Sequence record: PZ452578.1
Origin: a phage
Reading direction: 5' to 3' (one strand)
DNA: 64,000 nt
Of this stretch, positions 54,578 through 60,025 are shown piece by piece; positions within the stretch are counted from its first letter, which is position 1; every line of letters starts with the position of its first letter. The position numbers and the translations under genes were made by a program. Below the pieces are notes generated by a model. The model was not told the DNA's origin and ran no database searches. It saw only the letters and a program-made list of their open reading frames with translations.

Positions 54578-54777
54578 TTTGAATGCTCTATAATTAATTT
54601 TAAGGCTTCTTCACGCACCAACTTGTCTAATGGTATATGCCCAGTTTTAATTGTGTAAGCTTTGTGGAGCTGATTAGATAAGAGCTCGTATGTGAGCTCT
54701 TTGTCATAATCTTTAAATAGCTGGTCAATACGTTTCTTGCGGGCTTTCTTAAGCTGGCGTTTATTTAAACGAGCCAT
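54574..54777 (-). CDS. hypothetical basic protein (67 aa)
   Basis: Track ORF. Confidence 0.4.
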   Translation of the reverse strand: MARLNKRQLKKARKKRIDQLFKDYDKELTYELLSNQLHKAYTIKTGHIPLDKLVREEALKLIIEHSK

Positions 54778-55295
54778 TAATATCCTCTGTCTTGACGAGC
54801 GAAGTTTTCAGCATTTTTCAGATAATAAAGTTTAAATATTTCTTCAGCTGACATTCCAAGAGCAATGAATTTATTCATGAAAAAGTGAAATTGATCAATC
54901 AGTTCAAATTTAATTTCAAGTTGATCTTCAGGAGATAAATCTTGAATTTTCTTGGATTGCATTTCAGAATAACGTTTCTTCCAAGGTTTCCATACAGCAG
55001 AAGCTTCTTTTTCACCATTACTCATACCACCAAGAGAAGTATATAGCTCGCGAGTTTCGTCTGCGATATAATCGTCTTGGTTTCGCAACCAAGCAAGAAC
55101 TTCTCCTGCAGTTTCAAGTGAATCGGGATGACGATTTGTTTCTGGTTTATCATTAGCCAAACGAATCTGTAAATGCCGCTGCATGTCAAGCATAACCTGC
55201 AGTGGGTCAATATTGTGCATAATATTCTCAGCATATGCACGATTTGCTTTATCAACACCTTCGATCAAATGAGCGCATTCATTAAAGTAAGCCAT
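54777..55295 (-). CDS. 56: dCTPase-dUTPase gp56 (172 aa, MazG-like)
   Basis: ATG 55295 (MAYFNECAHLIEG...) with AAGGAAAAATA SD; track ORF extends to 55388. Confidence 0.75.
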   Translation of the reverse strand: MAYFNECAHLIEGVDKANRAYAENIMHNIDPLQVMLDMQRHLQIRLANDKPETNRHPDSLETAGEVLAWLRNQDDYIADETRELYTSLGGMSNGEKEASAVWKPWKKRYSEMQSKKIQDLSPEDQLEIKFELIDQFHFFMNKFIALGMSAEEIFKLYYLKNAENFARQDRGY

Positions 55296-55329
55296 TATTT
55301 TTCCTTTCAATTCGTGGGTTAGTAGATTA

Positions 55330-55355
55330 ATTATACAATAAATATATAAAGCAAT
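55330..55355 (-). promoter_or_regulatory. candidate middle promoter for gene 56 (MotA box ATTGCTTTA, 11-nt spacer, TATAAT)
   Basis: Consensus-like MotA box and -10; overlaps the SD of the plus-strand ORF. Confidence 0.45.
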
Positions 55356-55366
55356 AAGGAGGACAT

Positions 55367-55567
55367 ATGGTACAAAAATTAATGGCACTTGTTAATGCCA
55401 TCAAAGGTAATAAAAAACGTATAGCTTTTACTATTTCTGCTATGGTAGGAATTTTACTCTGGAACTTTATTTTATCACCTGTTGCAATTGCACATGGTAT
55501 TAATATTCCAGTAGTTACTCTTGATACATTTGTAGATTTAGCATTTGCTTTAGTTGGGTTAATTTAA
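55367..55567 (+). CDS. candidate small membrane protein (66 aa) on the opposite strand
   Basis: AAGGAGG 4 nt before ATG 55367; hydrophobic; stop overlaps gene 61 stop convergently. Confidence 0.35.
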   Translation: MVQKLMALVNAIKGNKKRIAFTISAMVGILLWNFILSPVAIAHGINIPVVTLDTFVDLAFALVGLI

Positions 55568-56592
55568 ATCTTAGCATATTTAGATAGCCGCATTTTAGCC
55601 ATCAACCCCTGTGCAATATTATTTTTCATATATTCCATAATTTGTTCAGGGGTTGCACCTTCCTTTCTAATCATATCATTAACATCTTTTGATTTCCAGG
55701 GAGATTTATCCCAAAACATAACCCTTTCTCCTGCATCAACTAATTTAGTCATTCGTTTGATAGTGTCAGGGTGACGAGGTTCATTATCTAAAACCCACAC
55801 TCGTCTATCTTTAAATGGAACAACTTCTAAGTCTAATTGACCACCCGTAATAGCTATACCATTTTCAATAAAAAGTGAATCTATAGGTCCTTCTAGAACA
55901 TATACATCACCATCTTTAACCCGTTCGACACCATAGATTTTTGTTGCTTCAGGATAAGCTTTGATAGTGATATATTTTTGGGGAGCATCTTTCTTTAATG
56001 CACGTCCTTGAAAAGACTCGGCTTTTCCATTAGCATTATAAATTGGAATAACAAGACGAGGCTCAGGTATTTCCTTTTTATATGTTCCCGGTGCTATGCT
56101 ATTAACCAATTTAGGCCATTCGGTTGTAAACCAAAGATATTTCCATTTATCCTTTGGAATACAACGAGCTTTTACATATTTTATAATTGGATGGTCTTCC
56201 GCCAGTTTATCTAATCGAACACATGACGGAAGAGATTTAATTATTTTCTTCTCAGGTTGTTTAGGAAGTTCTTTAGGTTTTTCTACTGGACGACTTTTAC
56301 CTTTTTCTTTTCTTATTTCAAAGATATACTCACGATATAAATCAGGTTCAAACTCCTTTAAATATATTCCGATTGGTGCATGATAGTTACAGTTATAACA
56401 ATGAATATTTCCTTCATTATTATCACCATAATACCATCCACGAGCTTTATTCTGGTCGGTTTTTGAATCTCCACAAACAGGGCATCTAAACCGCAATTTA
56501 AAAGTTGAACTATTATTTACTTGTGTGAATTTAGGTAAATGAGCTAATGCACGATACGCAAACTCATTATCAATCCAAGGTATTGATGACAT
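55564..56592 (-). CDS. 61: DNA primase gp61 (342 aa)
   Basis: 342 aa; zinc finger CPVCGDS...CYNC and TOPRIM region. Confidence 0.9.
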   Translation of the reverse strand: MSSIPWIDNEFAYRALAHLPKFTQVNNSSTFKLRFRCPVCGDSKTDQNKARGWYYGDNNEGNIHCYNCNYHAPIGIYLKEFEPDLYREYIFEIRKEKGKSRPVEKPKELPKQPEKKIIKSLPSCVRLDKLAEDHPIIKYVKARCIPKDKWKYLWFTTEWPKLVNSIAPGTYKKEIPEPRLVIPIYNANGKAESFQGRALKKDAPQKYITIKAYPEATKIYGVERVKDGDVYVLEGPIDSLFIENGIAITGGQLDLEVVPFKDRRVWVLDNEPRHPDTIKRMTKLVDAGERVMFWDKSPWKSKDVNDMIRKEGATPEQIMEYMKNNIAQGLMAKMRLSKYAKI

Positions 56593-56594
56593 TT

Positions 56595-56759
56595 TTAATC
56601 TTCTTTTTCTTTAGATTCCTCTTTTTTCTTTTTAGGAATCTGTTCAGGACCTTTATTTACTACAGCGCCTGACGTTGTTCCAGTAGAGATATTTTCAGGA
56701 TTACCACCTGAATCTCCAGCGACCATATCTTCTTTAATAAATTCTTTATATGTTTTCAT
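56595..56759 (-). CDS. possible small hydrophilic protein (54 aa)
   Basis: ATG 56759 preceded by the same upstream sequence as the 118-aa ORF; below track cutoff. Confidence 0.35.
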   Translation of the reverse strand: MKTYKEFIKEDMVAGDSGGNPENISTGTTSGAVVNKGPEQIPKKKKEESKEKED

Positions 56760-56804
56760 ATTAACCTCTATTCATAAAAGCATTAAAAATTTGGTCATCA
56801 ATAG
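56757..56804 (-). repeat. 48-bp direct repeat, copy 1
   Basis: 47 of 48 nt shared with 57115-57161; one mismatch and one 1-nt indel. Confidence 0.75.
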
Positions 56805-57117
56805 ATGGAATAGCAACCTTTTCGGCATCATTTAGCAAATCATTAATTTCATCGGATAGCATAACACATGTACCTTTATTTCCTGTAATTGTTACTGCGC
56901 AATTACGAACGTTTTCTTTATTAAATTTTAGGTTAATATTTTCGTAATGAAAATCCTTTAATGCTGAATATATTTTTAAAATAAAATTGTCTTTTACTAC
57001 AATAAACCCAACCTCACTATTAAAACGCGGTTCATGGAAACTGTAATAAACCTTTTCATCTATAAAATCGTATGAAATTTTTTCCATTTTTAAATATGAA
57101 AATTCAGAACTATACAT
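56761..57117 (-). CDS. hypothetical protein (118 aa) flanked by 48-bp direct repeats
   Basis: Track ORF; C-terminus shares SIDDQI with the 204-aa ORF. Confidence 0.5.
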   Translation of the reverse strand: MYSSEFSYLKMEKISYDFIDEKVYYSFHEPRFNSEVGFIVVKDNFILKIYSALKDFHYENINLKFNKENVRNCAVTITGNKGTCVMLSDEINDLLNDAEKVAIPSIDDQIFNAFMNRG

Positions 57118-57161
57118 ATTAACCTTTATTCATAAAAGCATTAAAATTTGGTCATCAATAG
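57115..57161 (-). repeat. 47-bp direct repeat, copy 2
   Basis: Pairs with 56757-56804. Confidence 0.75.
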
Positions 57162-57744
57162 AAACATTTACTTTAGACTGTTTTTCTGATGGTAATTCAT
57201 ATCCACATATTACAATTTTGTGATCAATATCAAAATACACAGAAGCAATATGATTAATGATATTTTCAGTGAAGTCTAAATCAACATCAATATCTTTTTG
57301 ACCAAAGCCCAAAGGATAAATAATGCGAGTAATTCGATTATCTTTAACAAAGATTCCACCGACATACTCTGTACTGCGTTTAAAGTCTACACGCCGACGA
57401 AATGAAAAATATTCAGGCTCTTTATGAGCTCGGCTCATAGGACACAACGAGTAACTAGAATAAGAGATGTCAAATCCTACGCCTTCGATATGAGCCAAAG
57501 TGTCATGATTAAACCAATTATAATCGTACGCCAAATCCATTAGATTATAATATGTAAAAGGCACCGGATTAACATCATTAGTCACAAGCATGTAATTAGC
57601 AACTGCTATAATTTCATTGTTTTTAACGAATACAAACCGTGATTGATGCGAATGACCTGGACCCGCGTTTTCACGATTAATGATATAACACTGGGCACCT
57701 TTATATTTGTATGTATCTTTGCACTTGTGCATTTGATAGAGCAT
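57130..57744 (-). CDS. hypothetical protein (204 aa), 61.2 position
   Basis: Track ORF; any equivalence to T4 61.2 is positional only. Confidence 0.45.
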   Translation of the reverse strand: MLYQMHKCKDTYKYKGAQCYIINRENAGPGHSHQSRFVFVKNNEIIAVANYMLVTNDVNPVPFTYYNLMDLAYDYNWFNHDTLAHIEGVGFDISYSSYSLCPMSRAHKEPEYFSFRRRVDFKRSTEYVGGIFVKDNRITRIIYPLGFGQKDIDVDLDFTENIINHIASVYFDIDHKIVICGYELPSEKQSKVNVSIDDQILMLL

Positions 57745-58037
57745 TATTCACCTACCACTTCAGCGATGATATTTTTGTTATTAAAGTTTTTATCGCAATA
57801 CAGAACATAATTATACTGCATTACACCACCAGACTTAAGCTGTTTTTGCACTTCAGCTTTCATTTCAGGACGATCGCGCTCAACGATATTCATAATATCT
57901 GCTTCAATTTGAGTTTCAACCTCAGTCTGATCCGCAGTCATAGACCATTCGCACAAATCTTTATCATAACCTGCCACAGCAGGCTGAGCAGCACAAGAAG
58001 CTAAAGCAAAAATTGTGGCAAAGATAAATTTTTTCAT
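57744..58037 (-). CDS. sp: Spackle periplasmic superinfection-exclusion protein (97 aa)
   Basis: Signal peptide MKKFIFATIFALASCAAQPAVAG; 97 aa; early promoter 58066-58095. Confidence 0.65.
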   Translation of the reverse strand: MKKFIFATIFALASCAAQPAVAGYDKDLCEWSMTADQTEVETQIEADIMNIVERDRPEMKAEVQKQLKSGGVMQYNYVLYCDKNFNNKNIIAEVVGE

Positions 58038-58356: not shown

Positions 58357-58539
58357 TTATCCTCGGCAATCCACTTCACATACTTTCTTGTCATCAATGA
58401 AAGCTTTAACTAATGCTTTATTAACTTCAGCATACTGAGTAGTAGCCCATTGAACGTCATCTTTCATCATTGTGGTTTCTTTAGTAAACATGCTTTCATT
58501 CTTAAACCACCCCATAAAAACTACCTTTACCAATTCCAT
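58357..58539 (-). CDS. dmd: Dmd-like antitoxin (60 aa)
   Basis: 60 aa and position upstream of the 61.x cluster; GAGGAG SD; early promoter 58579-58608. Confidence 0.55.
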   Translation of the reverse strand: MELVKVVFMGWFKNESMFTKETTMMKDDVQWATTQYAEVNKALVKAFIDDKKVCEVDCRG

Positions 58540-58578: not shown

Positions 58579-58608
58579 AGTCTCGTCAGCTTGTAAACTA
58601 AAATTTTA
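58579..58608 (-). promoter_or_regulatory. T4-type early promoter for dmd cluster
   Basis: GTTTACA, 17-nt spacer, TATAGT; overlaps 3' end of gene 41. Confidence 0.5.
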
Positions 58609-60025
58609 ATTCATTCGCCAAAGCATCTAACTGAGCTCGAGTGGATTCATTTCTTTGATAGCGATTCTGTTCAGCCTGAATCTGCTGTGAACCTGCTACT
58701 TCACTCACTTCAGTTGGAGTAGAATCTTGTTCAATTTCTACCCATTTCTGATTTCCCTTTTGAACACCCATCAAAAACTTATTCCATTTGTTCTTATCGC
58801 CATATCGTGATTTGATTTGCTTAATGAGTTGTTGTTCAGCAGCTGCTAGCTCCTCGGTTTCAATGACCGCAAGCATAAAATCAGCTGTTGCTGGAAGACC
58901 GGCAGATTCTGCGATATCACTCATGTTAACATCAGAAGAATCCCAAGCTTGTTTACCAACCTGTGCTGCAGTCCAAAGAACAGTTTCGGTTTCAACAGCC
59001 AGAGCACGCAATTCCTCTGCAATAGCTTTAACAGTTGTGTAACTATTTTCTGAATAAACTCTAATGCGGCAAGATTTACAAATACCTAGATAATCGACAA
59101 TAATGATTGTTGGAACAAAATTCTTCTTGAGCTTCAATTCGTTTAAAAGTGATCGAAATGTATTAGCATCTGCTCCACCAGTAGGATACTGTTTAACGAT
59201 TAAACGACCAAGAGTAGATTTCTCACGCCATTTTTCCATTTTTCCTTTATACTCAGCGTAAGAAATATGCCCATCATCAATGTCATCAAGAGAAACATCG
59301 AGCATATTAGCGTCAATACGTTTAGCACAGACTTCTTCTGCCATTTCCATGGAGATATAAAGAACGTTATGTCCGAGCTGTAAATAATCTGCTGCTAATG
59401 AACAAAGTCCTAATGATTTACCAACGTTAACGCCAGCCATTAAAACGTTCAGTGTTCCAGTCTCAGCTCCGCCTTTAGTAATTTTGTTTAGAATTCTGAG
59501 TTTAAATGGAACCTTACGAGCTTTATTCATATAAGATAGCCAACGTGCTTCATAGTCATCCATCCAATCATGGCCAACGTAGCTATCAAATGAAATTGAT
59601 AATGCTTGGCGCATGATGTCAGGAATAGCACCTACATCTGGCATTTTCTTATTTCGTTTTTCTGGAGGAAGCTCAGCATTAGTTTGAATTTCGATTATTT
59701 TAGACGTAGCATTAAACATCGCCCTTTGCTGAACATATTTTTCTGTTTCTTTTACTAACCAGCTGTGGTCTTCTGGAGAATCAGCCAGTTTTGAAATAAG
59801 TGTTTTTACACCAGAATATTCTGTTTCAGTAAATGAACTATTTTCTAATGCAACATTTAACGCATTAATAGATGGAACGCTATGATACTCATTGACATGA
59901 GATTTAATTAATTTGAATGTATTTTTAGCTGGACCACTTTCAAAATATTCTGAATCCATATATGGCCAAACTTTTGAAAAATAAGCTTGATCAAATATGA
60001 GATGAGAAAGAATAATTTCTACCAC
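58598..60025 (-). CDS. 41: replicative helicase gp41 (475 aa)
   Basis: 475 aa; DnaB-family Walker A GVNVGKS. Confidence 0.9.
   Translation of the reverse strand: MVEIILSHLIFDQAYFSKVWPYMDSEYFESGPAKNTFKLIKSHVNEYHSVPSINALNVALENSSFTETEYSGVKTLISKLADSPEDHSWLVKETEKYVQQRAMFNATSKIIEIQTNAELPPEKRNKKMPDVGAIPDIMRQALSISFDSYVGHDWMDDYEARWLSYMNKARKVPFKLRILNKITKGGAETGTLNVLMAGVNVGKSLGLCSLAADYLQLGHNVLYISMEMAEEVCAKRIDANMLDVSLDDIDDGHISYAEYKGKMEKWREKSTLGRLIVKQYPTGGADANTFRSLLNELKLKKNFVPTIIIVDYLGICKSCRIRVYSENSYTTVKAIAEELRALAVETETVLWTAAQVGKQAWDSSDVNMSDIAESAGLPATADFMLAVIETEELAAAEQQLIKQIKSRYGDKNKWNKFLMGVQKGNQKWVEIEQDSTPTEVSEVAGSQQIQAEQNRYQRNESTRAQLDALANELKF

Follow-up and report, generated by a model that had tools for sequence, protein, structure and literature searches.

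The 48-bp direct repeat upstream of gene 61.1 in a Tequatrovirus as the common 3' module of tandem adfA-family paralogues

A 64,000-nucleotide (nt) stretch of phage DNA (sequence record PZ452578.1; hereafter the window) contains the sp-61.2-61.1-61 region of a Tequatrovirus, over which the nearest INPHARED records are 98-99% identical. Two copies of a 48-bp direct repeat lie in this region. We found that the repeat is the common 3' module of two paralogues, adfA (gene 61.2, Anti-DarT factor A) and a short gene encoding 118 amino acids (aa), and consists of coding rather than non-coding DNA. Our overall explanation, which we consider probable, is that of tandem adfA-family paralogues with a common 3' module, in which recombination between the two copies leads to the arrangement of T4 and T6. 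These phages lack the 118-aa gene and hold exactly one repeat copy, at the 61.2/61.1 junction.

The downstream copy (D) at 56757-56804 reads CATATTAACCTCTATTCATAAAAGCATTAAAAATTTGGTCATCAATAG, and the upstream copy (U) at 57115-57161 reads CATATTAACCTTTATTCATAAAAGCATTAAAATTTGGTCATCAATAG. These coordinates and letters, with one mismatch and one 1-nt indel, had been given in an earlier note on this DNA and were borne out; the homology proved one base longer than first noted, ending at 56805 (D) and 57162 (U). The mismatch is C56768 in D and T57126 in U, and the indel is a run of five A at 56785-56789 in D against four at 57143-57146 in U. A 48-base repeat of this kind is far above chance. Shuffles predict 0.04 occurrences of its exact 20-mer core, which the window contains twice, and the flanking genes show 23-57% nucleotide identity per 30-nt window, with 97% identity confined to the last 48 nt.

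On the coding (minus) strand the module reads TCT ATT GAT GAC CAA ATT TTT AAT GCT TTT ATG AAT AGA GGT TAA T ATG. Each copy comprises the last 14 codons of a paralogue (SIDDQIFNAFMN[RK][GD]), TAA, one base and the ATG of the next gene, and the encoded tail is S-I-D-D-Q-I-F-N-A-F-M-N-[R/K]-[G/D]. Copy D (56757-56805) holds the last 14 codons of the short paralogue (SIDDQIFNAFMNRG), its stop at 56761-56763, one base and the 61.1 start codon at 56757-56759, while copy U (57115-57162) holds the 3' end of adfA and the start codon of the short paralogue at 57115-57117. The open reading frames (ORFs) and their C-termini (...SIDDQIFNAFMNRG and ...SIDDQILMLL) were as first described. The 118-aa ORF had also been placed strictly between the copies, which proved not to be so: the final three bases of U are its ATG, and D supplies its terminal 14 codons and stop, so that the 358-nt period equals one gene unit. 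The last two tail codons double as the Shine-Dalgarno sequence of the next cistron, GAGG being supplied by the Arg-Gly codons. For 61.1 this GAGG appears as plus-strand CCTC at 56765-56768 in D; copy U has a Lys variant, AAAGG (plus-strand CCTT, 57123-57126), in which the Shine-Dalgarno is weakened to AAGG. The rest of the 64-kb window contains no further copy of the tail. IMG/VR contigs carry one or two tails per genome, sited at this locus where the 61.1 anchor also fetched the contig.

An alternative is that the repeat is an expression signal only, kept identical as a regulatory spacer (ribosome-binding site, stop-start coupling, promoter or RNA structure) with no role in gene gain or loss. 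Its last 13 nt (GAGGTTAATATG and variants) do unite Shine-Dalgarno, stop and start and are kept before different genes in several genera, and a MotA-box-like TAATGCTTTT, 12 nt and TAATAT can be read by eye inside the repeat. However, codons make up 42 of the 48 nt, and nearly every change between genera is synonymous (GAT/GAC, CAA/CAG, GCT/GCC/GCA, AGA/CGA), which indicates selection on the peptide. The putative MotA core TGCTT is broken (TGCCT) in Gaprivervirus and JS98-like loci with the amino acids kept, and the scarless single-copy relatives described below are the exact expectation from inter-repeat recombination. We therefore regard an expression signal alone as a very unlikely explanation. 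A scan of the coding strand found no sigma-70-like promoter or terminator in the repeat, Rfam returned no match for it, and its predicted RNA structure was no better than that of shuffles (z-scores 0.04, 1.52 and -0.42). An RNA element was ruled out by the blank Rfam search and the shuffle-level folding of either copy; a promoter or terminator as the cause of conservation was ruled out by the blank coding-strand scan and because the MotA-like string is not conserved as DNA in other genera.

AdfA is T4 gp61.2 (LeRoux et al. 2022, as cited in PMC11825919), and our background on it was drawn from PMC11825919 and PMC11257639. In the window, the adfA product (57130-57744, minus strand) scores 437.3 bits on PF23813 over profile positions 1-204, the final positions being lost through a frameshift described below. 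The 118-aa ORF (56761-57117, minus strand) passes the gathering score of 27 with 34.4 bits (E = 1.8e-8) and covers profile positions 113-211 rather than the full length of 1-211; it thus aligns with the C-terminal half of AdfA. The family alignment leaves AdfA residues 1-58 and about 77-108 without a counterpart in it, and the two genes have in common the motifs Y.SF, VG.I.VKDN.I and L.F..EN as well as the invariant tail. BLASTP gave 28% identity across 96 aa between the two products. In the records of RB18 and RB51 the short gene bears the name RB32ORF033c and the description "similar to gp61.2"; among PHROGs it has a group to itself, 4122. The two genes are paralogues, and both are under purifying selection, with ratios of non-synonymous to synonymous divergence (dN/dS) of 0.02-0.35. 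No nuclease, integrase or transposase domain is present in the flanked 118-aa gene. The AdfA family is limited to T-even-like phages: searches yielded 5 and 16 clusters at 90% identity, and a set of 1.84 billion proteins contained 10 representatives.

According to the literature, RB69 AdfA(R164H) binds DarT1, and a His at residue 164 is reported to enable DarT1 neutralisation; T4 adfA is dispensable, without phenotype, against DarTG1 (PMC11825919). The long gene of the window has a His (ENIINHIA, T4 numbering 165) at the position equivalent to RB69 residue 164, and the short gene has a Cys aligned with it, in a weakly aligned stretch. T2 has been described as naturally without an adfA homologue (PMC11825919). 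We observed in T2 (locus L003, 1443-1799) a short AdfA-family paralogue directly after sp, as in PP01 (L004, 1457-1813); in T2 RefSeq this gene is named 61.2 and given a later ATG, for a product of 108 aa. A phage treated in the literature as lacking adfA thus carries a short AdfA-family gene under purifying selection.

The sp-61.1 slot, which in the window holds the two tandem paralogues, has three arrangements among relatives in Tequatrovirus. In INPHARED, about 540 records match the region, about 299 have the short gene and about 158 have the tandem junction (all counts approximate). The long gene alone, with one scarless repeat copy, occurs in T4, T6 and the IMG/VR loci L006, L007 and L010. 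Long plus short genes are found in RB18, RB51, Sf21, TB37, PinkRuby, Ge15, Sf22, teqsoen, KAW1E185, KIT03, ESh36 and three metagenome contigs, and the short gene alone, with the junction sp-TAA-TTAGAGGTTAGTATG, occurs in T2, PP01 and pSs-1. The presence or absence of the gene among relatives that the earlier note had envisaged, with a single repeat copy where it is absent, is therefore seen in T4 and T6. Tandem relatives have 0-3 mismatches between their copies, and ESh36 has 46 consecutive identical bases. The breadth of this sample also bears on the idea that the repeat or the extra gene is an assembly artefact, namely a duplication error. Nothing but the 1-nt homopolymer difference in copy U resembles a possible sequencing error; the same arrangement recurs in the roughly 158 independently sequenced phages and the three metagenome contigs, and the flanked genes are only about 28% identical as protein, which leaves an artefact with a negligible probability.

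Several records show further variation at this slot. Shigella phage ESh36 (L073, an UNVERIFIED record, 300-720) is tandem, has an almost perfect repeat with both copies ending in Arg-Gly, carries a T4-type 61.1 allele (MKTFKE) and lacks 1 nt close to where the short gene ends at its 3' side. In Shigella phage CT01 (L060, 1160-1722), adfA is split into annotated ORFs of 101 and 72 aa with internal deletions, and the conserved tail and the 61.1 junction are kept.

Recombination between the copies most simply explains this presence-absence polymorphism, and to that extent the suggestion of a cassette footprint in the earlier note stands. The gain of a cassette, also suggested there, is not supported as a recent event; the repeat is instead the conserved 3' module of an old pair. 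Under a recent gain, a T4-like, adfA-only ancestor would have acquired the 118-aa gene at short homologies, with the repeat as insertion footprint. The structure A-R-B-R-C here against A-R-C in T4 fits such an event, the short-only phages T2 and PP01 are possible donors whose ribosome-binding site-ATG junction (TAGAGGTTAGTATG) resembles the repeat end, and DNA rearrangement through short homologies is known in T4. Yet the tandem pair is also present in another genus, in VR7, and tandem allele families are deeply diverged inside Tequatrovirus, with a synonymous divergence (dS) of 0.5-0.8 between the bodies of the Sf21 and RB18 families. The T2-type junction AGTATG never appears in copy U, and the tail is present in every member of both gene families and so was not made by an insertion. 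The sampled long-only alleles, moreover, are close (T4-T6 dS 0.05), as fits one recent loss. A recent gain of the cassette is accordingly an unlikely account. The conservation of the tail across genera, the VR7 tandem and the diverged Tequatrovirus alleles indicate that the pair is old and that the T4/T6 state is most simply a loss; judged from these sequence comparisons, loss in T4/T6 by repeat-by-repeat recombination appears more likely than a recent gain in the window phage.

The last two tail codons provide a further indication of direction. Among 16 tandem genomes, copy U ends in AGA GGT (Arg-Gly) only in ESh36, in AAA GGT (Lys-Gly) in 12 and in AGA GAT (Arg-Asp) in three, and copy D ends in AGA GGT in 15 and in AAA GGT in one (PinkRuby). 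The single copy is AGA GGT in 6/6 long-only genomes, as is the single short-adjacent copy in 7/7 sequences. Tandem copy U and the long-only single copy differ with a hypergeometric p of about 9e-5, a hand-computed value for genomes that are not phylogenetically independent. The T4 junction is exactly what a U-D crossover to the left of the variable sites would leave. ESh36, with its nearly perfect repeat and T4-type 61.1 allele, is the kind of genome from which the T4 arrangement could arise. In place of GAGG, copy U nearly always offers the short gene a weaker Shine-Dalgarno (window 57123-57126; L002, L051, L056 and L070): AAGG in the Lys-Gly variant and GAGA in the Arg-Asp variant, the latter standing ahead of the VR7 short-gene orthologue as well. 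The pattern suggests that the short gene has long had a lower translation signal.

The similarity of the two copies as DNA is a separate question from the conservation of the peptide. With the peptide fixed and the codon usage of the window, two independent encodings would differ at about 6.3 of 14 codons; one differing codon or none has a probability of 1.7e-3. Copies U and D have 0-2 synonymous differences, an identity that needs more than codon bias alone. The earlier note took diverged rather than identical flanks, in relatives with the same arrangement, as the mark of a coincidentally conserved regulatory spacer, and such divergence was found in part: the copies differ at three sites in Sf21-like and RB51-like phages and at six in VR7. 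More generally, copies within one genome differ at 1-3 sites in Tequatrovirus, three in L016 and six in VR7, against 7-9 differing sites between orthologous copies of Tequatrovirus and Gaprivervirus, so that the six within VR7 are only slightly fewer. Both Gaprivervirus copies have in common an Asn-to-Lys replacement and the codons GAC, GCC and CGA, and copy D of PinkRuby bears the U-type Lys codon. Occasional gene conversion would produce a pattern of this kind.

Taken together, these observations point to a history in which the pair would have been made long ago, when adfA was duplicated in tandem by an "accordion" step of the type seen experimentally at the neighbouring dmd-tifA. The gene bodies would afterwards have diverged to saturation, and the tails may have been kept near-identical in DNA by peptide selection, overlapping translation signals and occasional gene conversion. 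The resulting 48-bp identity would serve as a substrate for T4-type homologous recombination, and a crossover between copies U and D would remove the short gene and yield the T4/T6 arrangement.

Several points weigh against this history. The polarity is drawn from parsimony and from a sample of mutually related genomes, and Arg-Gly next to 61.1 could reflect selection for a strong 61.1 Shine-Dalgarno rather than crossover history. Because the U variants weaken the Shine-Dalgarno of the short gene, selection on translation could likewise yield the same polarity pattern. The short-only T2/PP01 junction (TAATTAGAGGTTAGTATG) is not the exact product of any simple tandem deletion, and we found no exact microhomology deletion of the tandem form that would yield it. 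As for gene conversion, a shared binding partner and the difference in guanine-plus-cytosine (GC) content between genera are alternative contributors to the shared tail states; the higher GC content of Gaprivervirus could account for part of the shared codon states. Between orthologous tails we counted about 2 synonymous differences, where body dS predicts about 3.5. On this count the tail does not clearly evolve more slowly than the bodies, conversion is inseparable from a single older homogenisation, and we claim no special constraint at the DNA level.

We surveyed the tail across genera in 31 IMG/VR loci fetched by a 61.1 anchor, at 98% to 58% identity. The ORFs downstream of sp in these loci, of 111-216 aa, end in the same tail or in a degenerate form of it (DSQIFNYWMKK, DDDIFNAWMKR or DDQIFNFWIGHV). 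The same C-terminal tail is found in Mosigvirus, Gaprivervirus (VR7-like), JS98-like phages and RB69, and is degenerate in more distant phages. VR7 (Gaprivervirus) has the slot order sp, VR7ORF039c, short-gene orthologue, 61.4-like gene, ORF036c, 61.1, in which the second tail is not adjacent to 61.1. VR7ORF039c (145 aa) ends in ...SVDDQIFNAFMKRD, and the short-gene orthologue (119 aa, 46% identity) in ...AIDDQIFNAFMKRG. For the JS98 ORF030c / VR7ORF039c family, profile-profile alignment with AdfA (hhalign) covers the last 16 columns only, and the Pfam match is limited to the last 15-19 profile positions. The same tail is thus carried by bodies without homology detectable in these sequence comparisons, and it is the most conserved part of the AdfA family. 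In Gaprivervirus and JS98-like loci we also observed a second tifA (61.4)-like gene of 73 aa right after the tail-bearing gene or genes (L011-L018 and L070, about 2597-2818 / 1859-2080), so the island holds paralogue pairs from more than one anti-toxin family.

AlphaFold models of both paralogues predict the tail as a short helix, parted from the core by a low-confidence hinge. For long AdfA (P0006), the mean predicted local distance difference test score (pLDDT) is 71.7, the tail helix spans residues 196-205, and residues 189-193 fall below 50. The short paralogue has a mean pLDDT of 80.7, a tail helix at 106-115, residues 102-105 below 50, and a core predicted as five strands, helix, strand and helix. 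The residue that governs specificity sits in the AdfA body, and the constant tail probably performs a role common to all members, such as docking or assembly; most likely, the tail is a constant docking or assembly element for heads of varying specificity. A more specific proposal, which we consider conceivable though rather doubtful, is that D-D-Q-I-F-N-A-F-M serves as a portable constant anchor docking unrelated or hyper-diverged anti-defence heads on one phage or host partner, and that the tail coding sequence with its stop-start junction acts as a recombination socket for duplication, loss and swapping of heads. The heads would be the long AdfA, the short AdfA-like and the JS98 ORF030c types, all from the Tevenvirinae sp-61.1 slot, and the double Asn-to-Lys change in Gaprivervirus would then mean co-evolution with the partner. 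As the most conserved part of the family, set on a flexible linker and carried also by bodies without detectable homology, the 14-residue tail is an obvious target for mutagenesis or pull-down.

The clamp-binding epitopes of T4 gp43, gp55 and gp33 (PMC2988020) resemble AdfA in architecture, with a folded body, a divergent flexible linker and a short acidic/hydrophobic, conserved and portable C-terminal peptide. Their sequences are unlike the AdfA tail: SLDFLFG (gp43), SLDFLYEAND (gp55) and TLDFLL (gp33), against SIDDQIFNAFMNRG. We therefore ruled out the sliding-clamp-binding motif [ST]-L-D-F-L-[FYL] in the tail, the architecture alone being similar.

Two known systems of T4-type phages offer parallels to the repeat itself. 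PeSL cassettes (Arbiol et al. 2010, PMC2839356; PMC4122927) likewise place short conserved sequences around non-essential genes in variable regions, and recombination between their copies accounts for insertion, deletion and replacement differences among close relatives. A PeSL, however, is an intergenic early promoter plus a stem-loop terminator, whereas the module described here is a 3' coding end with a stop-start junction, without promoter, terminator or hairpin. The second parallel, the dmd-tifA "accordion" of T4 (Srikant et al. 2022, PMC9391042), lies about 1 kb away in the same island, termed an anti-toxin-antitoxin island in the literature, which agrees with the anti-defence setting assigned to the 61.x genes in the earlier note. 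Microhomologies of 6-10 bp serve T4 for the amplification of dmd-tifA and for deletions at other places in its genome (PMC9391042). The two cases are alike in changing the tandem copy number of an anti-defence gene by short-homology recombination. They differ in that the dmd-tifA events are recent laboratory amplifications of identical units at 6-10 bp microhomology, while the units here have about 28% protein identity and are alike in the 48-bp module alone. We regard the present locus as a clear case of processes already described (tandem paralogues, concerted evolution and, in T4-type phages, modular change mediated by repeats) and not as a new kind of element. It offers a natural example of a T-even anti-defence island altering its gene content, in which the identical junction module of tandem paralogues permits copy loss, and probably exchange, by ordinary homologous recombination.

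One feature of copy U is specific to the window. The homopolymer at 57143-57146 (minus strand; four T on the coding strand) is one base short of the five bases in every relative examined, and the resulting frameshift changes the AdfA C-terminus from ...QIFNAFMNKG to ...QILMLL. The frameshifted adfA ends at a TGA at 57130-57132, 12 nt before the next ATG, and because of the frameshift its product has 204 aa against 208-210 aa in relatives. All fetched tandem relatives have an intact AdfA of this latter length. The best 201-nt matches (RB32, RB33, teqsoen and CrRp10) are the window sequence plus one extra base, and vB_Eco_T-01, a candidate of the same overall length, also has an intact adfA. No instance of the four-base variant was found in IMG/VR, the best INPHARED matches or the fetched relatives. 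The deletion is either a strain-specific, tail-less AdfA allele or a homopolymer sequencing error; if the window sequence is correct, the phage is a natural tail-less AdfA mutant.

The remaining genes of the region all lie on the minus strand. Gene 61.1 (54 aa, 56595-56759) is the downstream cistron whose start codon closes copy D, and it is followed by the gp61 primase gene (55564-56592). On the other side, sp (spackle, 57744-58037) forms the left border of the variable slot, its stop overlapping the adfA start, and dmd (58357-58539) and gp41 (58598-60025) lie beyond it. In PP01-type short-only phages, extra small genes, one annotated as goF-like, lie between sp and 61.4 (L004, 2223-2727; L008, 2027-2281), which makes a further variable point in the same island. 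A second mosaic boundary lies within adfA itself, in its 5' third (window 57580-57744). In many phages, RB51 and RB69 among them, the match to adfA is confined to its 3' 409 nt, at 84-94% identity, and the N-terminal residues, about 55 in number, belong to a different allele (MIYYMHKNPPFKYGKF... versus MLYQMHKCKDTYKYKG...). Further along, T4 has dam between gene 56 (dCTPase) and gene 61; the window (54777-55567), like RB18, lacks dam there, and a plus-strand, membrane-protein-like ORF of 66 aa (55367-55567) occupies the dam position in the window, as it does in RB18.

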